From NCBI GenBank assembly GCA_022841505.1, contig JALHRK010000001.1, positions 357 through 64,356 on the forward strand: a DNA stretch of 64,000 bases, in the 5' to 3' direction. The notes under the pieces are model-generated. The model was not told the DNA's origin. It made no database searches and worked only from the letters and a program-made list of their open reading frames with translations. The stretch is from Saprospiraceae bacterium (lineage in GTDB: Bacteria > Bacteroidota > Bacteroidia > Chitinophagales > Saprospiraceae). Of the stretch, positions 5,456-60,375 are shown one piece after another. Position 1 is the stretch's first letter. Every line of letters begins with the position of its first letter. The position numbers and the translations under genes were made by a program.

Positions 5456-6493
5456 CTACCACACCACCTTCTTCCCATTTTCATACAACACAAACCGGTC
5501 TTTGGGTTCTTTGAAAGCCAGTGCTTGATTCATGCCAAACTTGCACGCACTTCGGATATTCAGGCCACGAGCAATGCGACTGTAAAAGCCGGTAGCAAAT
5601 GCAATGGCGGCATCGTCACGCACAGCCCAACTGGTGCCGATGACGTAGGGAACTACCTGTGCTAATGCCTGAGCCTGGGCTTCTGAATAGCAAGAGTTGA
5701 AGAGGACTACATTGATTGGGACATTTTCGTCATTAACTATCGTTTCAAAAATACTCTTTACAACATCGGTACCCACAAAAAAAGGATTGCGTTTTGACTC
5801 ATCGTACAAAATGATTCCAGTGTCGTCCTGTGGCACTTGCTGTCCATTGTCTCCACCTAGATTGAGGCCACGATGGATCACGTCTTGTAATTCCGGGTTG
5901 CTTTTTTCTCCATGGCCCGAAAAGTGAACGATGGTTGGTCTTTCGTCGTACAGGTATTCCTGAAACTCTGACAAAGTCACGGCTTTCTTAGAACGGATGC
6001 GGAAAGAGGCAGCGTTGTCGCTTTCCTGAATCTTGGTAGAAATGCGGCTATGTTCCAGATCAACCTGAAGAATGCCGGTGCCGGAAGGATTCGAAGCCAA
6101 AATGAGGATCGTTGTGGGTTCTTTGGGTGGAGTTGGTGAAATTGGTTCTGGAACAGGCTCCGGTTTTGGCACAATAACAACAGGCTCCGGTTTTGGCACA
6201 ACAACAGGCTCCGGGATGTCCATTTCAACACTAATTTCCGGGTCCGTAATGTCGCCAAGATAGCTTTGCAGGGCAGAGGTCACCTGAGCACGGGTACGAG
6301 CATAAAACTCAGACCCTACCACGCCGTTGGAATTGTCTTTTTCATTTTTGTGGTAGCGGCTGGATTGCAGGGTTACGTTGTCGGATAGGTCGTTGTCCCT
6401 AAGCTTATCGGCCACTAAAAACAGGGCATCAATGGCTTTTTCCAGATCGCCTTTCGCAATCATGCTGCGAATGTCTTTGATTTTGATGGTCAT
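5456..6493 (-). CDS. CHAT/caspase-like cysteine protease with an N-terminal EAD-like helical adaptor and a Pro-rich linker
   Basis: The C-terminal half has a His/Cys dyad context (IVHFSGHG ... VVLFNSCYS) typical of CHAT/caspase-fold proteases. The N-terminal ~85 aa helical module matches the C-terminus of the PNP protein at 23561-25096. Start set at the ATG at 6493. Confidence 0.75.
   Translation of the reverse strand: MTIKIKDIRSMIAKGDLEKAIDALFLVADKLRDNDLSDNVTLQSSRYHKNEKDNSNGVVGSEFYARTRAQVTSALQSYLGDITDPEISVEMDIPEPVVVPKPEPVVIVPKPEPVPEPISPTPPKEPTTILILASNPSGTGILQVDLEHSRISTKIQESDNAASFRIRSKKAVTLSEFQEYLYDERPTIVHFSGHGEKSNPELQDVIHRGLNLGGDNGQQVPQDDTGIILYDESKRNPFFVGTDVVKSIFETIVNDENVPINVVLFNSCYSEAQAQALAQVVPYVIGTSWAVRDDAAIAFATGFYSRIARGLNIRSACKFGMNQALAFKEPKDRFVLYENGKKVVW
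6154..6215. repeat. tandem 27/24-nt repeat encoding the PEPVV(V/I)VPK linker of the CHAT protein
   Basis: CAGGCTCCGGTTTTGGCACAA(TAA)CAA occurs 2.4 times. Confidence 0.8.
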
Positions 6494-6736
6494 GATACTG
6501 TTTTCGATTAAGAAGTTTTTCCAGTGTTTGATGCGACAAAGTAATACGAAATACTCTAAATTACTTCCTCTTAGCAAATGTTGCTTTTTTCCAGTCGCAC
6601 GAAGCTCATCAAAATCTACGGTTACACTATTGCCAAAAGTTTTGGGCTTAATTGATTCAGCTTTTTCTTTTAGCTCAAGTAACCTCTTCTGAGCTATTCC
6701 AACGATAATGTCGTCTGTATGAAAACCTTTCCAATA

Positions 6737-19625: not shown

Positions 19626-20540
19626 TTATACCAGGTTCAACGCTCTTTTTTCCAGAACCGACGCTGGCAGGCAGGCCAATATCTCGTCTTTCAGGGCTTG
19701 AATGAGGCGTCGTTTCACATAATCCTGCTGCGTGACCAGCAAAATTTCACGAGCTGGCGCCGGAGAAGCAAAACTTCGCAGCATGTAACGGTGGTCTTCG
19801 GGGAGGGTCATGGCGGCAAGTTCGGGCAGAATGGTATAGCCCATTTTCATCTCCACCAGGCGTTTGAGGGTTTCTAAGCTGCCCGCTTCATACCGGAATT
19901 GCTTGCCGCAATCGCGTTCCAGGTCGCACAACTTGCGGATGCTGGTGCGCAGGCAATGCCCTTCCTGCAACAACCAGAGGTCTTCTGCATTCAGATCCTC
20001 TGCTTTTAGGCCTTCTTTTTGGGTAGGGTCCGAGGTGTAAAGGAAAAAAGCTTCATAAAAAAGCGGTTGCCCTTCTAAGGATTTATCCGGCAACGGCCCG
20101 GCCATGATGGCGGCGTCAACGGCGCCGGTTTTGAGTTTTTCTAATAAAGTTTGCGTCAGGTGCTCCGTCACGATAAACTCCATGGCGGGGTACTTGTTGA
20201 CAAAAGCTTCCAGGAAATAAGGCACTAAATAGGGCGCCAGGGTAGGGATGATTCCGACGCAAAGCCTGCCATTCAGGGCCGCATGCCGTTCTTTGACCAA
20301 CTCTTGCAACCGGCCAACTTCATTCAGGATTTTACGCGCCTGCCGAATAACAGTTTCTCCGATTTCCGTTGGCACAACGGGTTGGCGGCTGCGGTCAAAA
20401 ATTTTACAGTCCAGCTCTTCTTCCAATTTCTGAATCATCATGCTGAGGGTTGGCTGCGTGACGTGGCACCCTTCCGCAGCTTTCGCAAAATGCCTTAGAT
20501 TATCAACTGCCGCGATGTACTCTAATTGCTGAATGTTCAT
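19626..20540 (-). CDS. oxyR: LysR-family peroxide-sensing regulator OxyR
   Basis: N-terminal LysR HTH (LEYIAAVDNLRHFAKAAEGCHVTQPTLSMMIQKLE). The redox Cys pair sits in the canonical context LLQEGHCLRTSIRKLC, with C-x8-C spacing as in E. coli C199/C208. Confidence 0.85.
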   Translation of the reverse strand: MNIQQLEYIAAVDNLRHFAKAAEGCHVTQPTLSMMIQKLEEELDCKIFDRSRQPVVPTEIGETVIRQARKILNEVGRLQELVKERHAALNGRLCVGIIPTLAPYLVPYFLEAFVNKYPAMEFIVTEHLTQTLLEKLKTGAVDAAIMAGPLPDKSLEGQPLFYEAFFLYTSDPTQKEGLKAEDLNAEDLWLLQEGHCLRTSIRKLCDLERDCGKQFRYEAGSLETLKRLVEMKMGYTILPELAAMTLPEDHRYMLRSFASPAPAREILLVTQQDYVKRRLIQALKDEILACLPASVLEKRALNLV

Positions 20541-20580
20541 GCTTCATAGATTTTTTCAATTCCTACATCAAAAATATCAG

Positions 20581-20612
20581 TTTGATTGATTAATTCATAA
20601 AAATTACCTTTG
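20581..20612 (+). promoter_or_regulatory. candidate promoter divergent from oxyR (-33 TTTG, -7 TACCTTTG)
   Basis: TTTG at 20581-20584 and TAnnTTTG at 20605-20612 are separated by 20 nt. Confidence 0.35.
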
Positions 20613-20808
20613 CTTATCTCAAAAATACGCGAACGCGTAGTACACGTAAAAAGGGTCGGGAACTTTCGGCATGTTTACGTCAACCACTGACCTCAGCAAA
20701 TATACGAAAGCTGAAGCCTCTAACCAGATTAGCAACCAAACGAATCAGATGGCAGGTGGTGAATTTTAGGATCAAGTTATTATAAATGTCGTGAAATAAT
20801 TTTTTTAG

Positions 20809-20848
20809 AGGCTGCCCAATGTTTACAACGGGGCAGCCTTCTTTATCT
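20809..20848 (+). terminator. hairpin terminator-like element closing the oxyR-divergent small unit
   Basis: A perfect 9-bp stem AGGCTGCCC / GGGCAGCCT with a 13-nt loop, followed by TCTTTATCT. Confidence 0.45.
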
Positions 20849-20861
20849 CACCAACTTCGGG

Positions 20862-20903
20862 CAAAAAAACAGGAGCCACCCCGGAAAACCGGAGTGACTC
20901 CTG
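20862..20903 (-). terminator. hairpin with a T-run on the minus strand
   Basis: An imperfect 13-bp stem CAGGAGCCACCCCGG-AAAA-CCGGAGTGACTCCTG is preceded on the plus strand by AAAAAAA, which is a U-tract for a minus-strand transcript. Confidence 0.35.
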
Positions 20904-21276
20904 TCGTTAATGCACGTTAGTTTTTCTACTACTAAAAAACTGTTCTATAGTAAATTTTCTACAATTTGGACTTCAATTCTTATCTTTATGGACTAAACGC
21001 GCCCATAAAATATGACTGCAAGTTCGCGATAGAAAGCCAATTTAACTTCGACGATTACCGCCCTTTTCACCACTACTTCTTTTTTACATATATTTCGCAT
21101 CCACTTACCTGTGCCAGGCAAAAAAGCATATCTCTCGCCCCTAATATGCTATTTTTAAGTCTTTTATTTATAACAAGCTTCTCTAAAAACTTTCTAACCT
21201 GTAAAGAAATTGCATTTTTTTTGTAATTTTCCAGTGGTATTTCACCAAATATTACAGATTTAACAAAAGTGTTAAA

Positions 21277-22716
21277 ATGGAAAAGAGCAAATTCATTGCG
21301 TACCTGCGAAACTTGAGCCCCAAAGAGCTGACCGGATTTGGAAAGTACTTGTCCCGGAATTGTGAAAATCAGGAAGCAACGCTTGCCGTGTTCAACTACA
21401 TCAAAAACTTCCGCCCGGATTATTCTGACGAAGAAAACCTAAACATTGACTTCGCTTCGGCTAAGATCTTTGAGAAGCCCTGGGCGCAAAACAGCGCAGA
21501 CAACAGAATCAAGCTGCTGAATACCCTGTCAGATCTGTTTCTCCGGTTGAAGGAATTCCTTATTCATCAAAAAGTAAGGGCAGGTTCCCTTGAAGCGCAG
21601 TTATTGTGGCTGGAAATTTTGTTGGCCCGTGAACAATACGCTGATGCAACCAAACATTTGGAGCAGATACAATCCACCATCATGGATCGCATGCCAACAG
21701 GGGATCAATATTATTTTCTGAAACTTGCCCTGCCTTACCTTGATTGTTATAAGATTCCAGGTAAGGGACGATTCGAGGGGTATAAAGCATTAATTGACTG
21801 CGCTTCCAGCCTGGAAGCTTTTTATGCCTTTACCCAACTCAAACTTGCCTGCGAAATAGCAAGCCGCCGAAAATTTTTGGCTCCCGAAGAGTTAACAGCC
21901 CAAGATGGGTTAGGCGCGGCTCTGCCAGGCTTCAACTATGCGCCTGCCTTTTTGGCAGCCAATCCAATCATAAACATCTATTACGAGATTTATCAGCTCC
22001 TGCGAAGTGAAGATGGCGCACATTTCGATGAAGCCTTTGACCTGCTGCATCAAAATGCGGGAAAAATTGATCTGGAGGAGCAACTCATTTTGCTGACTTA
22101 TTTGCAAAATTATGCAGCTAACCAATTGATTAAAGGAGCAAATTGGGTTTCTAAAAAATTACATAAATTGAACCTGTTAGGGCTTCGTCACGGGGCATTC
22201 ACCTTAAAAGGGCTGCTACCTGTTTCCCAATATTATAACATCATTGCAGTGGCCTGCCAGGCTGGGGAATTTGAATGGGCGGAAACATTTATCGAAGGGT
22301 ACACACTTGAAATGAAAACGCCTGACAGGACGGATAAAAAATTCCTTGGCCTGGGGATCGTAGCGTTCAGGCAAAAAGCATTTCAAAAAGCGTTGGATCA
22401 ATTTAAACAGGTTCAATCTGTGGATATTGATGACACCATTCGCTTAAAACCATTATTGCTGGCATGTTGCTATGAAATGGGGCAAGTAGATACGTGGATC
22501 ATTTACATGAGTAAGGCCTTCTCAAAACAGTTGTCCAGAGAGAAGTATATGAGAAAAGATACCATCATAGCTATGAAAAACTTTGTCAGGTTTTTTAATA
22601 CGCTGCACCGTGGGAAATTCAATAAAGAGCTGTTAATTAATAAAATACAGACCAATCATGCTTTTTTAAAAGAATGGTTACTTGAAAAAGCAAACGATCA
22701 TCCTGATGCCCGGTAA
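21277..22716 (+). CDS. hypothetical all-alpha (TPR-like) protein, paralog 1 of an island-bracketing pair
   Basis: 479 aa that aligns end to end by eye with 25437-26933. Shared blocks are SKF..(Y/F)L..LS.KEL..F, KLLN(T/A)LSDLFL.LKEFLI.QKV, LK(L/M)ACEIA, LLNYAA.Q and F.WA..F. I recognise no family. Confidence 0.7.
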   Translation: MEKSKFIAYLRNLSPKELTGFGKYLSRNCENQEATLAVFNYIKNFRPDYSDEENLNIDFASAKIFEKPWAQNSADNRIKLLNTLSDLFLRLKEFLIHQKVRAGSLEAQLLWLEILLAREQYADATKHLEQIQSTIMDRMPTGDQYYFLKLALPYLDCYKIPGKGRFEGYKALIDCASSLEAFYAFTQLKLACEIASRRKFLAPEELTAQDGLGAALPGFNYAPAFLAANPIINIYYEIYQLLRSEDGAHFDEAFDLLHQNAGKIDLEEQLILLTYLQNYAANQLIKGANWVSKKLHKLNLLGLRHGAFTLKGLLPVSQYYNIIAVACQAGEFEWAETFIEGYTLEMKTPDRTDKKFLGLGIVAFRQKAFQKALDQFKQVQSVDIDDTIRLKPLLLACCYEMGQVDTWIIYMSKAFSKQLSREKYMRKDTIIAMKNFVRFFNTLHRGKFNKELLINKIQTNHAFLKEWLLEKANDHPDAR

Positions 22717-22722
22717 CAAAAT

Positions 22723-22755
22723 CCGCCGCCCATAAGCCCGGCTCATGAGCGGCGG
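22723..22755. terminator. hairpin between the convergent genes paralog 1 and the FN3 gene
   Basis: Stem CCGCCGC / GCGGCGG with a 19-nt loop. Confidence 0.35.
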
Positions 22756-22780
22756 TTGCCGTGTTATTCAGCGTAATGCA

Positions 22781-23161
22781 TTAGAGGATAATATCCACCC
22801 AGATGATTTCTCCGGAATACTGCGCTTCGCAAACCGCTTTGACATGGACGGTATAAGTACCGGCAGGCAGTCCCGTGAAGGTGTGATACAGGTTCGTAGT
22901 TGGCACCGGCTGGCTTGTATAATGGTCTTCTCTCCGGTAATACCATACTTCGAAACCGTCCGGGCTGCCCGCTGCATTCCAGGAGAAAGAGATGGCGCCT
23001 GAACCCTGATTCGTAATGTCGAGGTTGTAAGGATCCATGCATAGGCATTCCGTTTCCGGTTGAACCGGCGAGGAATAGCTCTGGAAAACCTGGGCCAAAA
23101 GCGCCAGCAAAAGAACGGTCATGAAGGCGCCCCATCGTCCTCTTTTTTGTGCATTTTTCAT
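22781..23161 (-). CDS. small secreted fibronectin type III-like protein
   Basis: Signal peptide (GAFMTVLLLALLAQVF), then one FN3-like module (ISFSWNAAGSPDGFEVWYY...YHTFTGLPAGTYTVHVKAVC). Confidence 0.6.
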   Translation of the reverse strand: MKNAQKRGRWGAFMTVLLLALLAQVFQSYSSPVQPETECLCMDPYNLDITNQGSGAISFSWNAAGSPDGFEVWYYRREDHYTSQPVPTTNLYHTFTGLPAGTYTVHVKAVCEAQYSGEIIWVDIIL

Positions 23162-23560
23162 AGTAAGATAAGAATTGAAATGGAGGAAATGCGATGGCAG
23201 GAAACGGTAAGTAACAGGCAGAAAAAGGGCATCTTGCCTGCAGGGTGCAATACTGCAGGCAATTCAAAAATTGAACTTCTCCTTGCGGGCACTAGTAAAC
23301 CGAAAGAAGAAGCATACCGCCTTGTCTTGTGAAACTACTCTTGTCAGGGAAGTCGGAAGGATACGATCGCAGCATTCGTTGCCGGAGGTATTTCCTCGCC
23401 GTGCCGTGCCTGTCATCATGTTCGACGAAGGCAAAGGTATGGGCGAAGTGAAGAAAAATCAATTTAATTGACTGATTTACAAATATTTATAAAAATTTCT
23501 GTGGATTTCCGTGAATTTCTATAGATCCATCCTGACAGCTCGGACGCTAAAGAACAGCCC

Positions 23561-25096
23561 CTACAATCGCCCAACCAACTCCAAAAGTCCCGCCACAATC
23601 TGGCTCCGCTCCACCGTGGCCTCATCATTCCGGATGGTTCCGATGCGTAGTTTACGGGTCATGGCTTCCCAGCGGGAGGAAATTTGCAACGCTTCCAGAT
23701 GGGATTCTTCATCCCGGGATGCGGTGAAGTCAATTACGGCCTGAATTGCAGCTTCCGGCCTCCCGGAGGCAATCATCCGCTGCAATTTTTGGATGTATTC
23801 TGTTGTGACGGGGCTCCGATCCGGTTTTTTGCCTGTTGATCCCGGAGTTGCCGCTTCTTTAGTGCCGTAATAATGGTGGCTTATTTCAATGCGTTCCGCC
23901 GATTGTACATATTTATCTCCTCCGACAGCGTCCGTACTCTTATGCTCCTGATGATGGGTAACGCTGTTGTTGTCTCCGAGCCGGAAGTCGCCCCCCACCG
24001 TGATATTGCTGCCCTGAATGACGTTTTTGCTGTCGAAAATCGTCACACCGGCGTTCCCCGATTTTTTGGCTTCCACCAGTAAACGCTCCAATTCTGCCTG
24101 GAGCGCCGTTTTTCCTTCAAGCGCGTGTCTCAGGGCAATGCGCGCCTCGGCTTTCACATCGGCATCATCCGGCGCATTTTTTAAAGCATTGTATTCCTCT
24201 GCCAGCAGAGATTTTACTTTTTGCCACAAAGCCACGGCAGATTCGCTCGTTGTGCGGCTAAAATCCTGTCCGCCAGCTTCCATTTTGGTGATTGGCAATG
24301 TCATTTCGAGCATTTGTTTTGCCAATTCCTTCACATCCATACCTACGAATTTAAACTGAGATATATCTAACTGGTCAAGCATTTCAAAAATAAAAGCCGC
24401 CATATTGGCTGCTGCCCGTTCCTGCGAACCACCGGCATCTGCATGCGATTTACCTTCCAAAAGGTCAGAAATGCCCCGGATGTTGCCAAACCGGATGCCG
24501 GTATGAAACTGCATGGCCTGGCCGAAACCAATGGATTCCATTTCTAAAGCCGTCGTATCGTTGAACGATTGCTTCAGGAGGCGGTAAACGGCTCCGTCGG
24601 TGGCTGCAATCACTTTATCCCCGGAAGCGATGGGTCCAAAAACCACTTTTGCTCCAGGGGGGCCGCCCACGACCCTTTTTTGCCACCGATCATTTCCCGC
24701 AACAGATTGGGCAGTTGCCAGTAAGTCCTTGCTGTAATATCCGGCTTCCGGTCGAACAACGAAGCCAGTCTCCGTTTCTTTTCCAGATTCATAGCCATAA
24801 AACTTCGTCCCAACGACCACATCCCCCAATACTACATCTTTAACCCCTCCGGCGATACCTGCCAGGATAACTACAACCGGCTCAAAAAGACGAATTGTTT
24901 TTTCTGTTGCCAGTGCAACAGTGCTGTTCCCTGACCCCGTCTGATGAGTGACAATATTGAAGACGCCATTTTTGCCTTCAAACTGCCCGGATACATAGCG
25001 ACTTCCTTCAACCGCCCTTTCTGTTTGCGAAATCAAATGCGCCAGAATCGCTTTATGCTCCAGCGGAATTGGCGTGAGTATGGCAATATGATTCAT
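23561..25096 (-). CDS. PNP/MTA-nucleosidase-superfamily effector, with a coiled-coil and a Gly-rich segment, ending in a C-terminal EAD-like adaptor
   Basis: The N-terminal ~250 aa carry PNP_UDP_1 hallmarks (HIAILTPIPLEH, ILAGIAGG, GDVVVG, TALEMESIGF, IRGISDL). The C-terminal ~80 aa match the N-terminus of the CHAT protein. Start set at the ATG at 25096. Confidence 0.75.
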   Translation of the reverse strand: MNHIAILTPIPLEHKAILAHLISQTERAVEGSRYVSGQFEGKNGVFNIVTHQTGSGNSTVALATEKTIRLFEPVVVILAGIAGGVKDVVLGDVVVGTKFYGYESGKETETGFVVRPEAGYYSKDLLATAQSVAGNDRWQKRVVGGPPGAKVVFGPIASGDKVIAATDGAVYRLLKQSFNDTTALEMESIGFGQAMQFHTGIRFGNIRGISDLLEGKSHADAGGSQERAAANMAAFIFEMLDQLDISQFKFVGMDVKELAKQMLEMTLPITKMEAGGQDFSRTTSESAVALWQKVKSLLAEEYNALKNAPDDADVKAEARIALRHALEGKTALQAELERLLVEAKKSGNAGVTIFDSKNVIQGSNITVGGDFRLGDNNSVTHHQEHKSTDAVGGDKYVQSAERIEISHHYYGTKEAATPGSTGKKPDRSPVTTEYIQKLQRMIASGRPEAAIQAVIDFTASRDEESHLEALQISSRWEAMTRKLRIGTIRNDEATVERSQIVAGLLELVGRL

Positions 25097-25436
25097 CGGA
25101 AAAAAAATAATTGACCATGAAAAAAAACACCTGCTCACTCCTCCCCGAAACATAAACCTCCGGCTTCTATATATAGAGGGGTTCTATCAAAAACAAATTT
25201 GGCACAGTTTATTCTTTAAAGCAAATACGGGTTTTGCCCAAATCACCGAACTTTTCGTACCTTTGTTTTTACCCCAATCGTTTCAATTACTTCGATTAGT
25301 TGTTAATTTTAGCCGCTGGATTCTAATTTAAATCATTAATAATCAAAATTTTAAAAACAAAACTACTCCCACTTAAACCTTTCGCTTGATTTTATGGCCG
25401 CATTGCAATTTTCACCGTAAAAAAAAACGGAATTTT

Positions 25437-26933
25437 ATGAAAAATAGTAAATTTTTGTCCTTTTTGGGTACGCTGAGCAAAAAAGAGCTGGTCGCATTTG
25501 AACAATACCTGCTGTTTTTCCACCGAAAAGAAAAAATTGCACTCCTCGTGTTCTCCTACCTCAAACCTTTTTATCCAAAGTTCAATACCCCGGCAATTGC
25601 ATTTGAATTTGCCTATCAGGAAATATTTGGGTCTCCGCTGCCCGTAGAGCCCAAGGGCGGAAAGAATAAAGCAAAAAAACTGCTGAATGCACTTTCAGAC
25701 TTGTTCCTGTTTCTAAAGGAATTCCTCATCATCCAAAAAGTAAAGAAATATCCTTTAGAAAAAGAGCTGCTATGGTCGGGTGTTTTACTGGACAGAAGAA
25801 AGGTCCGGGCGTTTGAAACACATTATCCCAAACTGAAAAAAAAGGTCAACTCGTCCCCGGTAGATGTTCCCGGTTATCTGGACAAACTTGCAGCAAGCTA
25901 CATTCCAAACTACCTGTTACTTGAGGATAATTCAGCCAGGAGCATTGCCTCTTTGTTAACCTTCATTGATGATTTGGATTGTTTTTATACAAGTACCCGT
26001 TTAAAAATGGCCTGCGAAATCGCAACGCAAAAGAATGTACTGGCGCTAAATCTGCCAATGGACTCTGCGTTTCAGGCCGTAAGTTTAGTAGGGGTTCTTT
26101 CTCCAAATTTAAAAAAAAGCAACCCCCTCATCGCCATCTACATGGAGTTGTTCCTGCTCATTGTGAATAAACAGCACGAAAGCTTCAAAAAAGTGGAGTC
26201 ACTATTGCGGGCAAATACGGACAGGATCGAAAACCGGGAACAGCACATAATCGTTATTCACCTCTTAAATTATGCTGCTGCCCAAATCCGACTGGGCCAT
26301 CCGGAGGGTTGGAGCATGGTTCATCGCTTGAATGAATATGGCATCAAAAGGAAGCTTTTCATTGAAGGGGGGAGTATGTCGCCGGTTCAATTTACCAACA
26401 TCATCAATGCTGCCTGTAAAACCAGATCCTTTAGATGGGCTCAAAACTTCGTCAAAACGTATGCCCCATATCTCGGGGAGGACATCCGCGAAAACAACAT
26501 AGCATTGGGACAAGCCCAAATTGCTTTTGAACAGGGTTTTTATAAAAAGACGATGAGTGTCCTGAAGAAAAACCCCGGCGGCGACCTGTTTTATGAGCTT
26601 CGTGCCAGGTCCCTGACGTTGAGGAGCATCTGTGAACTCCGCCAGGAAGTGGTTGAAATCCAGAAATACTGTTTTGCTTTTGAACAATATATCTTCCGAA
26701 ACAAGAAAAGGAATACCGAAGCGATTGCGTCAGTCCTCAATTTTATTAAAATGCTCAAAATCGTGATTTTCAGAAAAAAAGACAAAGAACGCATCATCAA
26801 TGAGATAAAAACTCTGAAGCCGATTCAATTTGAAGACTGGCTGCTCCGGCAAGTGGAGGTATACTATGCAGCTGCCCCCAGCCGCATGAAGGGCAAGTTG
26901 CGTGGCAAGTCCGGAAATCAACTCAAAACTTAA
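25437..26933 (+). CDS. hypothetical all-alpha (TPR-like) protein, paralog 2
   Basis: 498 aa from the ATG at 25437, which aligns with the start of paralog 1. See 21277-22716 for the shared blocks. Confidence 0.7.
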   Translation: MKNSKFLSFLGTLSKKELVAFEQYLLFFHRKEKIALLVFSYLKPFYPKFNTPAIAFEFAYQEIFGSPLPVEPKGGKNKAKKLLNALSDLFLFLKEFLIIQKVKKYPLEKELLWSGVLLDRRKVRAFETHYPKLKKKVNSSPVDVPGYLDKLAASYIPNYLLLEDNSARSIASLLTFIDDLDCFYTSTRLKMACEIATQKNVLALNLPMDSAFQAVSLVGVLSPNLKKSNPLIAIYMELFLLIVNKQHESFKKVESLLRANTDRIENREQHIIVIHLLNYAAAQIRLGHPEGWSMVHRLNEYGIKRKLFIEGGSMSPVQFTNIINAACKTRSFRWAQNFVKTYAPYLGEDIRENNIALGQAQIAFEQGFYKKTMSVLKKNPGGDLFYELRARSLTLRSICELRQEVVEIQKYCFAFEQYIFRNKKRNTEAIASVLNFIKMLKIVIFRKKDKERIINEIKTLKPIQFEDWLLRQVEVYYAAAPSRMKGKLRGKSGNQLKT

Positions 26934-27837
26934 GCTGCCTTGCATTTTGCGCCAGCATTTGCAGGGAATTCCAATATCGGTCGTAAAGTGCAGGATTGCT
27001 TTTTTTAGAAAATTCAAGAACGGGACAATTGGCACGCGAAACCCCATAGACATAATGCGAAACCATAATTTTCCCGTCGGGACTATCCCCATCAACGGTC
27101 ATGAAATAATTGGCAGGGATATGTTGGTAGGCGAATATTTCAAAAGTGCCGCGGTACCCGGCGTTGATGAATTGCTGTTGCACCTTACCGAGCTTTTCAA
27201 TGGCTTCTCTGATTTTGCCAATGCTTTTCAACTCATCGGGTAAGTGTTTGGCCCGGTCGCTGAAATACAGCTGGGTTTCTTCGCAGTCGGGATCCAGCAG
27301 GTAGCATTTAAAATTGACGCCCTTAGCCAAAAGCTCCTGCACATGGTGCTTGAACTCTTTTTCATTCCGGGAGAAAAAATAGCCTGCAAAGGTATTCAGC
27401 ACCACCCCAAACTCGATGACTTCCTGTTTTGCATCAGAAATGAAATCCACTTTTTGAGCGATGGTCAGGCGGCCGTCTTCGTAAAATGTGAATCCAGGAT
27501 GAGCCGAAGGGTGCACTGTTGTTTCGATTTTTATAGGGATTGGGGCCCAATTGGATGGTACAGCTTCACCATATTGAGTCTCTTCCCATTCCACACCGAT
27601 TTCCCTGCGGATAAGTTCCTGAATGCCTTCAGCCGCTATTTTCAGTATTTTGTTGCCCCCTTCCTTCTTTCGGACAATTTTGCTAAACGCTGATTCAGAT
27701 ACAATGAACCCAAGTACTTCCATTTTTTCAACGATCTGTAGTTGGGAATACCCTTGTTTCTCCTTGAGCAATACCACCCCAGCCTGGATGATGTCTATGC
27801 TGCGTTGTCTGATCGGGCCTCCTGGTTTATCCGCCAT
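26923..27837 (-). CDS. HTH regulator with a C-terminal DUF5919-like domain; the alternative start is 27861
   Basis: The N-terminal HTH-like segment is YSQLQIVEKMEVLGFIVSESAFSKIV. The C-terminal part (KCYLLDPDCEE...GTFEIFAYQHIPANYFMTVDG...VSHYVYG...CPVLEF...LYDRYWNSLQ) resembles the domain fused to XRE HTHs in actinobacterial DUF5919 proteins. This is from memory only. Confidence 0.5.
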   Translation of the reverse strand: MADKPGGPIRQRSIDIIQAGVVLLKEKQGYSQLQIVEKMEVLGFIVSESAFSKIVRKKEGGNKILKIAAEGIQELIRREIGVEWEETQYGEAVPSNWAPIPIKIETTVHPSAHPGFTFYEDGRLTIAQKVDFISDAKQEVIEFGVVLNTFAGYFFSRNEKEFKHHVQELLAKGVNFKCYLLDPDCEETQLYFSDRAKHLPDELKSIGKIREAIEKLGKVQQQFINAGYRGTFEIFAYQHIPANYFMTVDGDSPDGKIMVSHYVYGVSRANCPVLEFSKKSNPALYDRYWNSLQMLAQNARQLKF

Positions 27838-27901
27838 AAGTATTTGATTTTTTGAATGCATTGCTGCGTTAAGATACAAAAATTCCCTTCCCTGCTCCGG
27901 A

Positions 27902-28516
27902 TCAGACCGTTTTGGCAGCATCCAGCACCATCAGGATACCTGCATTGCCGCATTGCGGGTCGTTCAGGTAGTTTTTTACGATGCGAACCAAAACAAACCC
28001 CACCTTTTGTTGCGGGGTAATGGTGGGGTCTGTTAATTCACCATTCAACACCCGGGCGCCGTATGCATCAATGGTCAAATGGTCTTTATAGGGCAAATAC
28101 CCGTTCAGCATACCCACAGTTACCTGCCCTTTCAACCCCAGTTTACGGCATAATTCCTGCCGGGTTCGGTACAAAGCACGCGCCACGCCTTGTCCGCGAT
28201 AAGCAGGATCAACGCCCATATCCATGCCGTACAACCATACGCCCTGCGGGTCGTGGGTATTCAACCATAAGTTATCCGAAATTTCCAGGAAGGTATGGTC
28301 TGCTTCGAGTGGGTGGTTGGTGCGCATGGTGCTGCTCATCGCAATCAGACGCTCTCCGTCCGTCACCACAAATTGCCCTTCCGGAAACAGCTCGATGTGT
28401 CGCAAATAGTGTGGTGCGGCGAGCCTTTCTTCTTCAGCGAGCGTAGGGAATACCGTTCGTTGGAGCGCTTCCAATTTTATTACATCCGCCGGGATGGTGT
28501 TACGGATCAAATACAT
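27902..28516 (-). CDS. GNAT family N-acetyltransferase
   Basis: Acetyl-CoA binding motif A is present (VDPAYRGQGVARALYRTRQELCRKLG). 204 aa with a C-terminal extension. Confidence 0.8.
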   Translation of the reverse strand: MYLIRNTIPADVIKLEALQRTVFPTLAEEERLAAPHYLRHIELFPEGQFVVTDGERLIAMSSTMRTNHPLEADHTFLEISDNLWLNTHDPQGVWLYGMDMGVDPAYRGQGVARALYRTRQELCRKLGLKGQVTVGMLNGYLPYKDHLTIDAYGARVLNGELTDPTITPQQKVGFVLVRIVKNYLNDPQCGNAGILMVLDAAKTV

Positions 28517-29157: not shown

Positions 29158-32100
29158 ATGGAGCAAAACAGCAATCAGCAAAGACAGCAGTACAACGCAG
29201 CGTTCAAACATGCCTTAGATGCATTGAACGCTTCGCAACGCGAGGCGGTTGATCATATCGAAGGCCCGATGCTGGTCATTGCCGGCCCCGGCACTGGCAA
29301 AACGCATATCCTGGCCGCCCGCATTGGCCGTATTTTGTCGGAAACCGACGCCCAGGCCAACAATATCCTCTGCCTTACTTTCACCGACGCGGGCGTCCAT
29401 GCCATGCGCGAACGCCTGCTCCAATGGATCGGCCCGGAAGGACACCGTGTACACATCCACACCTTCCACGCCTTTTGCAACAGCATCATCCAGGATAACC
29501 TTGAGTATTTTGGCCGAAGCGACATTGAGCCACTCAGCGAACTCGAACGGGTGGAAATTATCCGCCGCATGCTTGACACGCTCGACCCCGCGCACCCGCT
29601 CTACCGCAGCGCAGACGCTTACTTTTATGAATCCCACCTCCGGGATCTTTTTCAGCGCATGAAATCGGAAAACTGGACGCCCGCGCTCCTCCACGAAAAA
29701 ATTGACACATACCTCGAAGCATTGCCACAACGCCCGGAGTTCAGGTACCAGGTCAACCGAGGGCACCTGCGCAAAGGGGATCCCAAAACGGCGCAAATAG
29801 AAGAGGCCCGCCAAAAAATGGAACGGCTCCGCGCAGCCGCAGCGCTTTACCCCCAATATGAATTGGCCTTGCGGCAAATGCGGCGCTACGATTACGACGA
29901 CATGATCCTGTGGGTTTTGCGCGCATTTGCTGAAAACGAAGCCCTCCTGCGCAGTTATCAGGAGCGCTATCTCTACCTGCTGGTGGATGAATACCAGGAT
30001 ACCAATGGCGCCCAAAATGAGGTCATCCGCCGGTTGATCGCCTACTGGGAGTCGCCCAATGTATTCATTGTTGGCGACGACGACCAGTCCATTTTTGAAT
30101 TCCAGGGAGCGCGCCTGAAAAACCTGCTGGACTTTTACGCCCAATACCGCGAACAACTGAAGGTAGTGGTGCTCCGCGACAATTATCGCTCTTCCCAACA
30201 TATTTTAGATGCTTCGCACGGTTTGATCGGCGTCAACGAACGGCGCATTGTAAATAGTTTAGACAACGTGGGTATTCAAAAGATCCTAACTGCCCGCAAC
30301 GACAACTTCTCCCGCTCGGCTTTTCTGCCGGAGGTGCTGTCTTATGCCAACCTGGCCCAGGAGGAAACCGGCGTAGTCGCCCAGATAGAAGCGCTCTGGC
30401 AGAGTGGTTTCCCCTTGCAGGAAGTGGCAGTGATTTACGCCCGGCACAAACAGGTGCGCACGATCGCTTCCCTGCTTGAAAAAAAAGGCATCCCTTACGC
30501 AACGCGACGCCGCGTGAACATTCTCGATTTGCCGCTCATCCGCAACATGAGAACCCTGCTGGAATATTGTTATCTCGAATATACCCGGCCTTATAGTGGC
30601 GAACACCTGCTTTTTCAAATCCTGCATTTCGATTTTTCGGGCATTCCTCCCAACGCACTGTCGCGGCTGAGCTGGGCCATCGCCGGGACGGGTACCGCTG
30701 AAAGGCCCTTCTGGCGCGATGCTTTGCAAACCAAAGGCCCGGAAGCGGATTGGCGCGAAGCCACTACCCGATTTTCCGCTGTTCTGGAAGACCTGATTGC
30801 ACAGGTGGCCAACCTCGGTTTGCCGGCTTTTCTGGAACGGCTGCTCAACCGCAGCGGCATACTGGGCTTAGTGATTCAGCACCCTGAAAAAGTATGGCTG
30901 ACCCAGGTGGTGAAAACATTTTTCGATTTCGTTCTCGAAGAGAGCGACCGCAATCCCCGACTCACCCTGCGCCGCCTGCTCGACATCCTGCGCAATATGG
31001 ACGACAACCGGTTAGCCATCGAAATCAACAAATCAGTCGTCGCCAAAAACGGCGTCAACCTGCTGACGGCTCACAGCGCCAAAGGGCTGGAATTTCAGAT
31101 CGTTTTTATGATTGATTGTGTCAAAGACGGTTGGGAACCCCAGAGTCGTGGCGGCAACGGCCGTTTTGCACTCCCGGATACGCTTACCTTTTCGGGCGAA
31201 GAAGACGCGCTGGAAGCCCGCCGCCGGCTGTTTTATGTAGCCATGACGCGGGCCAAAGAGCGCCTGTACCTCTCCTACAGTCGCCAGGACGCGAAAGGGA
31301 AGGATACCCGGCCCGCAGTTTTTATAGATGAGTTGGGCCTTGTCGCTTCAGAACGTACCTTGCCACCCGCCGTGCTGGCGGAAGCTGAATTGCTGCAAAT
31401 GACCGAAGTGGGGCGCCCCCAAATTCCCGCCGAAGCCGAAGCCGCCATCCATACCCTACTGGAAGGCTTTGTAGTCAGTATTTCCGCGCTGAACCGCTAC
31501 CTGCGCTGCCCGTTGAGTTTTTATTATGAAAACGTGTTACGGGCGCCCGCCCTGCAAAGCGAAGCGGCCAGCTACGGGTTGGCAGCGCACAACGCCCTGC
31601 AACGCCTGTTTGAGCGCATGTTGTCGGCAAAGGGGCAGCGGTTTCCCGGCTTGCGCGAATTCCTGCACCTTTTCGAGCGGGAAATGGAAAGAATGCGGGG
31701 CTATTTTCCACCGAAAGCATTCGATCGCCGCGTAGAAACCGGTCGCGCCTACCTGAGTGCCTACTACCATCAGCACATCGAACACTGGCACAAAAAAGTG
31801 CGCCTCGAACTTCAGGTTCGCAATGCGGTTGTGGACGGGGTACCGATCACCGGGATCATTGACAAGGTGGAAATCCACGAACACCAAAGCGTGGTGCTGG
31901 TAGACTACAAAACGGGCAGTCACCGCGACGCCAAACTGCGTCCACCCGGCGGCGCCCAGCCCTACGGCGGCAGCTACTGGCGGCAATTGGTATTTTACAA
32001 ACTACTCTACGAAAACTACGACAACAGCGGAAAACGGGCGGATACCGGTGTAATTTCTTATTTGGATCCCGACCCGACTGGCGTGTTTCCCCAGGTCTCC

Positions 32101-32286
32101 ATTGCGCTCAGCAACGAAGACGCCGCTTTCCTGCGCGCACTCCTGCGCGAAACCTACGCCCGCATCCTGAACCACGAATTTTATGAAGGTTGTGGCGAAC
32201 CCTCTTGTGCCTGGTGCAATTTTGTGCGTTTGAAAGGAACCGTGAATAGTTTTAGCGGGGAGGAGTTAGAGGAACTGGATGATTGA
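29158..32286 (+). CDS. UvrD/AddA-type SF1 helicase fused to a C-terminal PD-(D/E)XK (RecB/Cas4-like) nuclease with a four-Cys cluster
   Basis: Walker A AGPGTGKT and the motifs DEYQDTN, VGDDDQSIFEFQGA, LTAHSAKGLEF and YVAMTRAKERL are present. The C-terminus has GIIDKVE...VLVDYKTG plus the Cys residues of CPLSFYY and CGEPSCAWC. Confidence 0.9.
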   Translation: MEQNSNQQRQQYNAAFKHALDALNASQREAVDHIEGPMLVIAGPGTGKTHILAARIGRILSETDAQANNILCLTFTDAGVHAMRERLLQWIGPEGHRVHIHTFHAFCNSIIQDNLEYFGRSDIEPLSELERVEIIRRMLDTLDPAHPLYRSADAYFYESHLRDLFQRMKSENWTPALLHEKIDTYLEALPQRPEFRYQVNRGHLRKGDPKTAQIEEARQKMERLRAAAALYPQYELALRQMRRYDYDDMILWVLRAFAENEALLRSYQERYLYLLVDEYQDTNGAQNEVIRRLIAYWESPNVFIVGDDDQSIFEFQGARLKNLLDFYAQYREQLKVVVLRDNYRSSQHILDASHGLIGVNERRIVNSLDNVGIQKILTARNDNFSRSAFLPEVLSYANLAQEETGVVAQIEALWQSGFPLQEVAVIYARHKQVRTIASLLEKKGIPYATRRRVNILDLPLIRNMRTLLEYCYLEYTRPYSGEHLLFQILHFDFSGIPPNALSRLSWAIAGTGTAERPFWRDALQTKGPEADWREATTRFSAVLEDLIAQVANLGLPAFLERLLNRSGILGLVIQHPEKVWLTQVVKTFFDFVLEESDRNPRLTLRRLLDILRNMDDNRLAIEINKSVVAKNGVNLLTAHSAKGLEFQIVFMIDCVKDGWEPQSRGGNGRFALPDTLTFSGEEDALEARRRLFYVAMTRAKERLYLSYSRQDAKGKDTRPAVFIDELGLVASERTLPPAVLAEAELLQMTEVGRPQIPAEAEAAIHTLLEGFVVSISALNRYLRCPLSFYYENVLRAPALQSEAASYGLAAHNALQRLFERMLSAKGQRFPGLREFLHLFEREMERMRGYFPPKAFDRRVETGRAYLSAYYHQHIEHWHKKVRLELQVRNAVVDGVPITGIIDKVEIHEHQSVVLVDYKTGSHRDAKLRPPGGAQPYGGSYWRQLVFYKLLYENYDNSGKRADTGVISYLDPDPTGVFPQVSIALSNEDAAFLRALLRETYARILNHEFYEGCGEPSCAWCNFVRLKGTVNSFSGEELEELDD

Positions 32287-33526: not shown

Positions 33527-34639
33527 TTACTTTTTGTATTTCTCCGGGATTAATTCCAAAACATTCCCGTTGTATAAGTGGATATTTTTGAAATGCATTT
33601 TGCCTTCATGTGCTAGTTTGCCGATCACAATGGAGGGATGTACGCCGTATGCTACTGCGCATTCTTCTACACGGTTTACACTTAAATAGTGTAATTCACC
33701 TTTGAGTGTCTCCAGTATTTCCGGGTGCTTTAGCATTTTCGAAGCCATTCTGTTTGCTTCCTCTTCTATTGTGCTATTTTCTCCGTTGTGTAAATTATCC
33801 AAAATAAAAGGGACTTCCTCGTTCAGGTGTAGCAATACATGCGCCAACTCATGCGCCAGGGTAAACCAAAAATGGTCTATTCGTTTGTACCTACCAGTAT
33901 AGACTACAGTTGGGCTACCATTGCTAAAGAAAGCAGCACCATCTATGTCGGTTTTCTCCAAATGAGGCAATGCCAGAAATTTAACCCCAACACGACCGAG
34001 TTCATCTAAAAAATCCGAAATGCCATTTTCACTTACTGTATATACTGCAATATTTTGGTAAAGCTCCTCCAATTTTTGGCGCCGGTAATCCTCTACTTGA
34101 ATTTGTAGTGCTTCTATCTGCGCCTTGCGGTACCAGGTTATTGCGTAAGCAGCATTAAATTGGTTATATACATCTGATTTTCGAGTAAGAAAAGGAAGCA
34201 GGTTCTCATCAAAATCTTTAAAATCCAACTCCGTTTTACCCCAGAACTTCAGCGCTTGGCTTTTAAGATCTTCTAAATCCCGAGGCGGCCGCAGCCACCC
34301 CTTTTTTATCATATCACGCACAGGCATTCGTGCATAAATTTGAGCTTTAATATCCGCTATTTTTTCTTTTTCGGTGGGCACATCCTGCAACCACAATTGG
34401 TAGGCGTAATCAAGATTGAGCCAGTATTGCGCAGAAGTGTCAAAAACTTCTGCCAAAATGCGCGCCATGTCTATGCTTATACTTTTTTTGTTGTTCAGCA
34501 CTTCGCTGATATGCTTTTGTGAAAAGCCGGTAATTTCAGCAAAGTCTTCCTGATTCCATTCGCGTAGCTCGAGTTGTTCACGGATAAAATAACCGGGACC
34601 AAATTTTTTCGCGGGTCTTGATTGAGCTGTACTGATCAT
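33527..34639 (-). CDS. XRE-family HTH fused to an ImmA/IrrE (M78, COG2856) zinc metallopeptidase; putative antitoxin partner of HigB (alternative start 34651)
   Basis: An N-terminal HigA-like HTH (WNQEDFAEITGFSQKHISEVLNNKKSISIDMARILAEVF) and a C-terminal HEXXH (LAHELAHVLLH). Confidence 0.8.
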   Translation of the reverse strand: MISTAQSRPAKKFGPGYFIREQLELREWNQEDFAEITGFSQKHISEVLNNKKSISIDMARILAEVFDTSAQYWLNLDYAYQLWLQDVPTEKEKIADIKAQIYARMPVRDMIKKGWLRPPRDLEDLKSQALKFWGKTELDFKDFDENLLPFLTRKSDVYNQFNAAYAITWYRKAQIEALQIQVEDYRRQKLEELYQNIAVYTVSENGISDFLDELGRVGVKFLALPHLEKTDIDGAAFFSNGSPTVVYTGRYKRIDHFWFTLAHELAHVLLHLNEEVPFILDNLHNGENSTIEEEANRMASKMLKHPEILETLKGELHYLSVNRVEECAVAYGVHPSIVIGKLAHEGKMHFKNIHLYNGNVLELIPEKYKK

Positions 34640-34643
34640 GGAG

Positions 34644-34952
34644 TCAAGCATAGTGGTTTGAAATAGTGAGCAGGTAAAAATCACCAATTGTACAAGATTC
34701 GTTTATCCAGTTTATATTCATTTCAAGCCGGTACTTCTGATTTAGCCTCATTGAATGCCGATGCTCGGAGCCTTTTAATTTTTCGAAACGCAGGCCTTTG
34801 TCTGAAAGTAAGTCGTGTACGTCTACTGCCGCTTCAATCTTCTGGATCGTTGCAAAGAATTTGTCAATTACCTGTTCCGGCAACTTTAGCTTTCTGGATT
34901 TTCCAGAGAGATAAAGGCTTTCCAGTTCTTTGTCATCAAGGAAGACTTTCAT
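34644..34952 (-). CDS. higB: HigB/RelE-family toxin (plasmid maintenance system killer-like)
   Basis: 102 aa. The pattern ...KKLKLPEQVIDKF...L....G.RFEKLKG....HSMRLNQKYRL is typical of HigB-type killers. It lies directly upstream of the HTH partner. Confidence 0.7.
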   Translation of the reverse strand: MKVFLDDKELESLYLSGKSRKLKLPEQVIDKFFATIQKIEAAVDVHDLLSDKGLRFEKLKGSEHRHSMRLNQKYRLEMNINWINESCTIGDFYLLTISNHYA

Positions 34953-59965: not shown

Positions 59966-60375
59966 AATCGGTATTTGGTTTAAAATGAAAAAAACAAACA
60001 CTTCAGGCATTCCATGGGGATTGCCTGGCGGGGTAGTAAAACAGCATGAACGGCATACCAAACATAAGGATGGCTGCGTGAATTGTGTTTGCTCTGTGTT
60101 GTGCCGTAAATTTTTGCGGCTTTATTGAATGATGGCGGCGCAGGTAGGGTAGTTTCCCAAAATGAGGGATGCAAGGGAAGCGCCGTCATAGACGTTGTGG
60201 ACAAATATAGCTGGTCTATCCTGAAAAAAGAAGGTGACTTGTGTTAAGTTTTTGTACATGATGGGACAAATGATCGCTTTTCAATATGCCCCATTCCTGT
60301 TTTTACTAAAAACACCAGCCATTATCTCGTAAATTCAGGCTAAGTTTGCCCACGATACGAATTCGCTGACATAGC

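Follow-up and report, generated by a model that had tools for sequence, protein, structure and literature searches.

Architecture of the protein

We analysed a 64,000-nucleotide stretch of contig JALHRK010000001.1 of a Saprospiraceae bacterium (the whole stretch is called the window here) and concentrated on the minus-strand gene at positions 23561-25096, whose product carries, from its N-terminus, a nucleosidase domain of the PNP_UDP family, a helical domain (called MID), a short beta motif, a linker and an EAD11 adaptor. According to the list of open reading frames (ORFs) and their translations, the gene comprises 511 codons and a stop. An in-frame ATG located further upstream, at 25153, would lengthen the product by 19 residues; position 25096 is the likely start because all homologues start at the methionine of the sequence MNxxAILTP. 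The order of segments that an earlier note had read from the letters of the window (PNP, helical segment, Gly-rich stretch, disordered linker and C-terminal adaptor) was confirmed by domain scans with Pfam and by an AlphaFold2 model.

The AlphaFold2 model of the 511-amino-acid (aa) protein, for which 43 family members served as input, had a mean predicted local distance difference test (pLDDT) score of 82.6, and the region of aa 349-427 was modelled with low confidence (pLDDT of about 28-52). The helical segment, which had been described as a coiled coil, was modelled not as a long coiled coil but as a compact domain of five helices (MID, aa 255-347; 24056-24334, minus strand; pLDDT mostly 85-96). 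This family-specific domain has no match in Pfam; it is conserved in the short forms of the protein and is also found without PNP, in MID+motif+EAD11 proteins.

Comparison of 424 homologues showed three architectures: PNP-MID-motif-EAD11 (about 500 aa), PNP-MID-motif (about 380 aa), which terminates directly after the motif, and PNP-motif-EAD11, which has no MID (about 380 aa). Besides PNP, the motif of about 20 residues is the sole element common to all three. The window protein looks as if the two genes of the arrangement PNP-MID-motif + motif-EAD11, found in related genomes, had been fused.

A conserved Gly/Asn-rich motif

The stretch that had been noted as a Gly-rich beta-segment is present (GNAGVTIFDSKNVIQGSNITVGGDFRLGDNN, aa 346-377) and overlaps the low-confidence region of the model; it is not filler, however, but holds a conserved motif common to the termini of other proteins of the same loci, and is probably a second adaptor. 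The motif itself (unit r1, aa 356-375, SKNVIQGSNITVGGDFRLGD; 23972-24031, minus strand), located with a motif hidden Markov model (HMM) and proposed here as a homotypic amyloid-like adaptor, parses as the three hexapeptides NVIQGS, NITVGG and DFRLGD, which together have the length of one beta-solenoid rung. It is the best-conserved short segment of the family, with the effector-side consensus NSKNViqGSnIsVGGDFrLGD, and in the monomer it has low AlphaFold2 confidence and no assigned secondary structure. Comparison by eye showed a possible degenerate second unit (r2) at aa 390-411 (AVGGDKYVQSAERIEISHHYYG; 23864-23929, minus strand), which resembles the tail of the motif as it occurs in partner proteins (GNVHIGDIINIQQ / GDTHYHYYQ); by eye, protein P0029 (IEGNVYIAETINIEQ) and the starts of motif+EAD11 proteins show this likeness too.

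We then applied the motif HMM to every six-frame ORF of 93 related loci (designated by L numbers) and of the window, 94 sources with 1.56 Mb in total. At a score of at least 14 bits, the motif was found in 54 PNP ORFs and in 31 non-PNP ORFs (28 distinct proteins), and the same search against reversed or shuffled copies of these ORFs gave zero matches at 10 bits or more. The motif begins 2-25 aa after the first methionine in 23 of the 28 distinct non-PNP proteins. In about 50 Saprospirales loci, it terminates the PNP effector and begins other proteins encoded at the same locus, often in adjacent genes.

The composition of the motif, calculated over 27 match columns, is enriched in glycine (2.6x), asparagine (2.6x), valine (2.1x) and isoleucine (1.8x) and rich in serine, while proline is absent, leucine (0.2x) and lysine (0.8x) are depleted, alanine and glutamate are few and glutamine is not enriched (0.74x). 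On the partner side the consensus is SKNvixgSsIxAGGNVHIGD, with systematic differences from that of the effector side. Comparison of effector and partner motifs encoded at the same locus (27 pairs) showed a mean identity of 48%, with a range of 38-61%, against 45% for non-cognate pairs (permutation p 0.004).

Proteins that share the motif

The commonest layout among the motif-bearing partners is motif-linker-EAD11, represented by sixteen proteins of about 130 aa (P0121 and P0122 are such adaptors) and by one 236-aa protein with the same parts. The gene of such a protein lies right after a PNP-MID-motif gene in L012/L013, L025, L027, L037 and L049. In L078, four consecutive genes carry the motif and encode PNP-MID-motif, a 905-aa protein that begins with the motif, motif-NB-ARC-TPR and motif-CHAT-STAND-TPR proteins; the partner-side motif peptide of this locus is MAKIYNSKNIIYQSSIYSTGNVHIGDTYNIYGE. 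Another partner, in L033, has the layout motif-transmembrane segment-FGE-sulfatase, and there are several further motif-transmembrane proteins of unassigned type, along with a small protein with two transmembrane segments in L006 whose motif is at the C-terminus. In L008, L016 and L018 (10001-16300), an operon encodes PNP-MID-motif, GrpE, HSP70 and a protein of about 873 aa beginning with the motif, with a relative in L022; the arrangement is reminiscent of the conflict systems with HSP70 in Kaur et al. 2020.

Proteins with an FGE-sulfatase domain, a putative ligand-binding domain, adjoin the conserved gene cassette described below in L025 (13479-14684, minus strand), L029 (11166-12278, minus strand) and L033 (12891-13907), and the domain is joined to either type of adaptor, as EAD11-FGE-sulfatase or as motif-transmembrane segment-FGE-sulfatase. 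A short-form PNP-MID-motif gene heads an operon in L009 (10001-18377; also in L026) that continues with 848-aa and 748-aa proteins (weak Band_7 matches), a 501-aa protein with a weak PADLOC match to ZorA (MotA/ExbB-like, 1.4e-5) and an OmpA-domain protein; by these matches, it is a predicted Zorya-like stator pair beside a PNP effector.

EAD11 in the window and in other genomes

The C-terminal segment of about 80 aa, previously called EAD-like, is a true EAD11 domain. It lies at the extreme C-terminus of the protein (aa 432-511; 23564-23803, minus strand), matches the Pfam family PF19964 at aa 435-511 (E 1.4e-14, 54.3 bits against a cut-off of 26) and is modelled by AlphaFold2 as four helices (aa 432-510, pLDDT of about 87-96). 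EADs are small terminal adaptors that have been proposed to couple effectors with core NTPases by homotypic contacts (PMC7159879; PMC8195603), and EAD11 occurs on LRR-AP-GTPase-COR proteins of Haliscomenobacter hydrossis, which belongs to the same order as the source organism (supplement to that work). The window encodes a second EAD11 protein, the CHAT protein to which the earlier note had alluded, at 5456-6577 (minus strand), on the same contig and 17 kb from the PNP gene; it has an N-terminal EAD11 (1.2e-16) and a caspase-like CHAT protease domain (1.2e-9) in Pfam and is a candidate EAD11 partner of the PNP protein. Searches of the window ORFs with phmmer, using the EAD11, middle and full segments of the PNP protein, found only the protein itself and are too insensitive to link the two EAD11 copies.

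A census of EAD11, made by searching 1.84 billion representative proteins with a profile of the domain, gave 3,679 clusters at E values of 0.001 or less, and the Pfam EAD11 model was found in all 99 multi-domain representatives that were scanned. The partner domains in these 99 were TIR_2 (24 members), TIR (10), CHAT (8), PNP_UDP_1 (6), KAP NTPase and Caspase (4 each), Trypsin and LRR (2 each), and Roc/COR, nSTAND1, FGE-sulfatase and SEFIR (1 each). Since EAD11 is joined in this way to TIR, CHAT/caspase, PNP, SEFIR and trypsin domains as well as to KAP, Roc-COR and STAND NTPases, activation by recruitment is the natural reading for the effectors that carry it. Among the 150 best-scoring clusters of the census, 27 are motif+EAD11 and 6 are MID+motif+EAD11 proteins; because these were found with an EAD11 profile that contains no motif columns, the motif-linker-EAD11 arrangement is a widespread free-standing two-part module.

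Some large proteins (700-1,600 aa) hold three to seven copies of EAD11. Four to seven tandem copies are present in P0131-P0134, P0141, P0143 and P0235 (990-1,620 aa), the first of which also has LRR repeats. Such proteins could act as multivalent hubs for EAD11 effectors.

The nucleosidase domain

The assignment of the N-terminal portion of about 250 aa to the PNP_UDP_1 fold of the 5'-methylthioadenosine/S-adenosylhomocysteine nucleosidases (MTANs) was borne out by comparisons of sequence and structure. The domain (aa 4-240; 24377-25087, minus strand) matches PNP_UDP_1 in Pfam (E 1.7e-24, 87 bits against a cut-off of 25.1), and the nearest solved structures are MTANs (phmmer, 1.9e-10; Foldseek, TM-score of about 0.85 on the target) and futalosine hydrolase; the Foldseek search used the whole model and is dominated by the PNP domain. 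The catalytic residues, the absence of which on alignment was to have spoken against the earlier note's proposal, are present and conserved: M173/E174 and the general acid D197 of MTAN align with M186/E187 and D211, and the invariant E13 is one position off E12 of MTAN in the pairwise alignment. M186/E187, D211 and E13 are invariant across the family in the 43-sequence alignment, as are K86/D87, K106, R115, R207, S210 and K216. That the basic residues among these (K86, K106, R115, R207 and K216) mark a phosphate-binding site is speculation.

Comparison with the NCBIfam equivalogs of the housekeeping MtnN enzyme showed that the protein falls short of their cut-offs (75.2 bits instead of 169 for NF004079 and 39 instead of 73.8 for TIGR01704). 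The PADLOC models gave a match to the candidate defence protein PDC-M60C (1e-14) and a weak, partial match (aa 38-118, 3.9e-9) to the CBASS model 'Effector PN-superfamily'. In a scan for PNP relatives restricted to one genome per species (80 loci), the nearest relatives beyond Saprospirales (40-44% identity) were N-terminal domains of larger proteins, with the architectures PNP-NB-ARC-TPR, PNP-nSTAND, PNP-TPR-GreAB-C-PIN and caspase-CHAT-PNP-FGS. The same architectures house the immune ATP-nucleosidase clade of Rousset et al., and immune PNP domains, one of them fused to a Death domain, are known to have ATP nucleosidase activity (bioRxiv 10.1101/2023.01.24.525353). By analogy with Cap17 and DtcC, the substrate of the window protein is most likely ATP/dATP or another abundant nucleotide, whose N-glycosidic bond would be cleaved once the protein is activated.

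The conserved gene cassette

The PNP gene belongs to a five-gene cassette that is conserved in about 50 Saprospirales loci, P303 (+), FN126 (+), B480 (-), HTH104 (+) and PNP (+), written here with the PNP gene as the plus strand. The cassette is kept while the outer flanks differ (L001, L005-L066; 21277-27921 of the window). Scans of B480, P303, FN126 and HTH104 with NCBIfam and PADLOC gave nothing significant, and none of these four could be placed in a family.

B480 is present twice in the window, in agreement with the two paralogs mentioned in the earlier note. The first (25386-26933, plus strand, with a likely start at 25437) is divergent from the PNP gene and is modelled by AlphaFold2 as an all-alpha, TPR-like solenoid (pLDDT 82.8), and the second, placed on the cassette map at 21277-22716 (plus strand), is 31% identical to it (E 1e-64). 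Both are TPR-like solenoids without EAD11. Foldseek gave weak matches of low TM-score to the TPR proteins IFIT5, NprR and LGN; because these are generic TPR solenoids, no specific function of B480 is drawn from them. A B480 gene is encoded beside the PNP-motif gene in about 48 loci, and extra pairs of B480 and FN126 occur, such as the second pair downstream of the PNP gene in the window. The small FN126 protein encoded there (22781-23161, minus strand) has an N-terminal hydrophobic stretch, seen by eye, that is a putative signal peptide; an orthologue has a weak fn3 match, and orthologues are found at the same position in L001 and L005-L009. The P303 protein (about 300 aa; 26923-27921, minus strand), which lies beside the cassette in about 34 loci, has a possible N-terminal helix-turn-helix, again by eye; it has no match in Pfam, NCBIfam or PADLOC, and its profile has none among the sequences of the PDB.

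HTH104, a gene of about 104 aa with a C-terminal helix-turn-helix-like stretch (a weak match), lies directly upstream of the PNP gene in about 45 loci. It ends a few tens of bases before the start of PNP or overlaps it, so that the pair is probably co-transcribed. In the window, an intergenic stretch (25188-25406) stands in its place. Alignment with the relative L001 (blastn, 92% DNA identity) showed that 218 bp of the window stand for 616 bp of L001, the unaligned window stretch being opposite L001 9343-9959, which holds a 108-aa gene; the PNP gene is intact, and no remnant of HTH104 was found anywhere in the window. The suggestion that the PNP gene is monocistronic is thus right for the window copy and does not extend to its relatives, nearly all of which have HTH104, deleted here, directly upstream. 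The loss could mean that HTH104 is dispensable or that the window copy is deregulated.

The sequence does show the hairpin noted downstream of the PNP gene, near 23235-23259 (GCCTGCAG...CTGCAGGC), but a terminator scan did not call it. A strong hairpin, with a 15-bp GC-rich stem and a T-run, is located at 22723-22755 between the convergent B480 (which ends at 22716) and FN126 (which ends at 22781) genes and is probably a bidirectional terminator. The GC content of positions 20000-28000 is 0.43-0.47, compared with 0.49-0.56 on both sides, a dip that would agree with an island around the PNP cassette that was acquired horizontally or is evolving fast. No integrase or phage-type Pfam domain turned up among the window ORFs scanned, a scan that was not aimed at prophage origin.

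Discussion

The reading that we favour, and hold to be fairly probable, is that the window protein is an effector of a bacterial conflict network (immunity or programmed death) that is assembled through its beta motif and its EAD11 domain and whose nucleosidase is activated by clustering. The earlier note's proposal of an immune-type effector activated by recruitment is consistent with all of the comparative evidence, including the EAD11 census and the PNP relatives fused to NLRs, but it had overlooked the shared beta motif. According to the mechanism proposed here, the PNP domain would be a nucleosidase of a clade that is elsewhere fused directly to NLR-like STAND NTPases, and the remainder of the protein would be regulatory, with MID followed by a two-part adaptor made of the beta motif and the four-helix EAD11. 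A sensor with an N-terminal motif (NB-ARC-TPR, CHAT-STAND-TPR, membrane FGS or HSP70-linked proteins), once activated, would template or recruit the motif of the PNP effector through homotypic binding and a cross-beta structure. EAD11, for its part, would pair with the EAD11 of other components, either directly or through small adaptors. The partner in question would be the CHAT protease in the window and, family-wide, TIR and caspase effectors and KAP, Roc-COR and STAND NTPases. Clustering within the assembly would then switch the nucleosidase on.

Several observations weigh against this reading. The motif is internal, not terminal, in the window protein, and in the 80 kb of source contig examined (JGI 3300015615, Ga0183872_10417607), which include about 10 kb beyond each side of the window, there is neither a second motif-bearing protein nor an EAD11-bearing NTPase. 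The two EAD11 domains of the window are just 26% identical (E 0.001), a value inside the range of 16-44% that the EAD11 of the PNP tail shows with those of other genomes, so that no special closeness of the window pair is apparent. The excess of identity of cognate over non-cognate motif pairs is small (0.48 versus 0.45). The PNP domain scores higher with MTAN and futalosine-hydrolase models than with the CBASS effector model. Lastly, no recognised defence system flanks the locus, and PADLOC gives nothing for the genes that accompany PNP in the cassette.

Recruitment could run solely through EAD11-EAD11 contacts, to an EAD11 NTPase or to the CHAT protease, with the Gly/Asn stretch acting as a mere linker. 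EAD11 is indeed a curated adaptor family present on many effectors and NTPases, an EAD11-CHAT gene lies inside the window, and the motif is internal here and unstructured in the AlphaFold2 model. No mere linker, however, would be conserved better than every other short segment of the family, recur at the very start of 23 distinct proteins that are unrelated and belong to the same loci, NLR-like proteins without EAD11 among them, or end the short-form PNP proteins, which have no EAD11; we consider this explanation unlikely. The motif could also be a peptide tag for the B480 protein, which would hold or chaperone motif proteins, or a degron or protease site for CHAT. Short extended peptides are common ligands of TPR proteins, the TPR-like B480 is encoded beside so many of the PNP-motif genes, and CHAT proteases are linked to the system. 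B480 paralogs nevertheless occur without an adjacent PNP or motif gene (window 21277-22716; L005, L007), and the composition bias, combined with the layout in which adjacent genes have the motif at the C-terminus of the effector and at the N-terminus of the sensor, is the specific signature that has been reported for amyloid signalling motifs, which makes the tag or degron somewhat more doubtful still.

That the PNP domain generates a signal, its released base or ribosyl product serving as a second messenger for other components, was proposed by Burroughs, Kaur and Aravind for the PNPase domains of ternary conflict systems (PMC7159879), and short-form PNP genes do head operons with ZorA/OmpA-like, HSP70 and large unassigned proteins. 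The immune PNP domains tested so far, however, deplete ATP/dATP and are toxic alone (bioRxiv 10.1101/2023.01.24.525353), and no nucleotide-sensor domain (SAVED, CARF, SLOG etc.) is present among the scanned neighbours, so that this role appears improbable here. An ordinary salvage enzyme, an MTA/SAH or futalosine nucleosidase with a lineage-specific tail, would account for the best sequence and structure matches being MTANs and for the name 5'-methylthioadenosine/S-adenosylhomocysteine nucleosidase that NCBI gives to several homologues, but it is very improbable in view of the score of 75 bits against an equivalog cut-off of 169, the variable C-terminal modules (none, EAD11 or other) and the relatives fused to NLRs, the family-invariant basic residues, which may set the family apart from MTANs, and the immune-like genome context (NLR, CHAT, FGS and the TIR-rich EAD11 network).

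Assembly through the motif and EAD11, the reading preferred here, can be set beside several known systems. The EAD-coupled effectors (Kaur, Burroughs, Iyer, Aravind 2020/2021) likewise have a small terminal helical adaptor on an enzymatic effector, and PNPase is among the effector domains listed for them; they differ in that the positional table of the Kaur supplement holds a single unique EAD11 architecture, and PNP-MID-motif-EAD11, motif+EAD11, EAD11-CHAT and EAD11-FGS were not found in the Kaur text or tables searched. Cap17 of CBASS, DtcC of Detocs, the sponge DDAN protein and the fungal and coral NLR-PNP proteins (Rousset et al. 2023) are similar in having an effector of the PNP_UDP fold, with the catalytic aspartate kept, that is joined to immune signalling modules, and DDAN, a fusion of a Death domain with PNP, is the animal counterpart of EAD11 plus PNP. 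The possible link with the Cap17 clade consists of the weak partial PADLOC match and of relatives with NLR, TPR, FGS and PIN fusions as in that clade. Unlike Cap17, which responds to a cyclic nucleotide, and DtcC, which depends on phosphotransfer, the window protein would be activated by adaptor-mediated assembly.

BASS1-10 are NLR-associated amyloid signalling motifs of Actinobacteria and Cyanobacteria (Dyrka 2020), and BASS11 belongs to the experimentally proven Bab/Agp antiphage system of E. coli and also adjoins EAD7 (Ibarlosa 2024). The fungal motifs are HRAM, PP, sigma and PUASM, the last being specific to PNP_UDP effectors (Wojciechowski 2022). The motif described here resembles these in being a proline-free motif of about 20-25 aa, rich in G, N, V and I, that ends an effector and begins the NB-ARC/STAND-TPR protein of the gene next to it, in the identity of the pairs (about 40-60%) and in the 'all-in-one' effector-NLR fusions found in other genomes. 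The terminal pairing of an effector C-terminus with the N-terminus of a nearby NLR is found for the family, in L078, and not for the window copy. The sequence and layout features used to define NLR-associated amyloid motifs, among them a composition typical of beta-helices, are present in the family, and the motif is proposed to be amyloid-like; the low confidence of the model is consistent with this. The PUASM peptide VFHGKGIQHTGSGNFSVGNDLSIS (...GSGNFSVGND) resembles ...VGGDFRLGDN of the window motif in a comparison made by eye.

The motif differs from BASS in occurring in Bacteroidota (Saprospirales), Bacteroidetes not being mentioned in the 2020 BASS preprint, and in its association with PNP_UDP, which the BASS paper does not name as a bacterial effector domain. 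It differs also in being paired with EAD11 in the free-standing adaptor, in being present in transmembrane/FGS and HSP70-operon proteins and in being internal in the window protein. In one search of the literature for amyloid signalling in connection with Bacteroidetes and NLR, the Kaur 2021 paper was the sole result. A comparison of a TPR-GreAB-C-PIN fragment with phages and plasmids, made in search of BASS11 relatives, gave no enterobacterial match, and the Burkholderia protein that was inspected lacks a motif of this kind at its N-terminus.

EAD11, the class of PNP-EAD effectors, the PNP nucleosidases of immunity and signalling by amyloids are already known. Three elements appear to be new relative to the literature searched: the family of the motif, the presence of this motif together with a PNP effector in Bacteroidota, and the two-part adaptor in which it is combined with EAD11. 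Our wider proposal, which we put forward tentatively and regard as possible rather than probable, is that the motif is a new prokaryotic family of cross-beta (amyloid-like) signalling motifs, the first in Bacteroidota, and that it is wired to EAD11 in a free-standing adaptor, so that a single network links sensors and effectors. If this were true, NLR-like sensors, membrane FGS sensors and HSP70 modules would be linked through the motif with the TIR, CHAT/caspase and PNP effectors and the GTPase/KAP cores that are reached through EAD11. RIPK1 (kinase-RHIM-Death domain), ASC (PYD-CARD) and FADD (DD-DED) are bipartite adaptors or kinases of animals. The network would correspond, in bacteria, to the RHIM-plus-Death-domain logic known from RIPK1 or to adaptors of the ASC type, and the window protein would be its fused enzyme-motif-EAD version; the analogy with RIPK1, ASC and FADD is one of architecture (a cross-beta motif and a helical homotypic domain, giving two assembly types), and no homology is claimed.

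PNP-family effectors are a recently recognised way to kill the host cell or to starve a virus by destroying ATP, and the switch that controls them has been described mainly for CBASS and Detocs; the family described here offers a testable case of assembly by two types of adaptor. If the motif acts like BASS or PUASM, amyloid-type immune signalling would reach another bacterial phylum and would be physically joined there to Death-like EAD adaptors, with a bearing on the origin of the signalosome logic of animals and fungi (RHIM, Death fold, NLR). The 20-aa peptides and the motif+EAD11 proteins, with about 130 aa, would make small and easy reagents.

Other genes of the window and its flank

A cluster of BatA/vWA/DUF58 genes (L094 1-4600), without a detected EAD or motif, is located some 5-10 kb before the start of the window. 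A 1,042-aa fusion of a UvrD helicase and a PD-(D/E)XK nuclease is encoded at 29158-32286 (plus strand) and is conserved beside the cassette in L001 and L005. The gene at 33527-34687 (minus strand) encodes a protein with HTH_3 and Peptidase_M78 domains (ImmA/IrrE-like), the longer orthologue of which in L001 also has a weak HigB-like toxin match. Type IX secretion C-terminal sorting domains, which place the organism in Bacteroidota, are carried by the PKD-domain proteins of two further minus-strand genes, one of 584 aa (51129-52883) and the other of 2,371 aa (52946-60061), the latter with a right-handed beta-helix as well.

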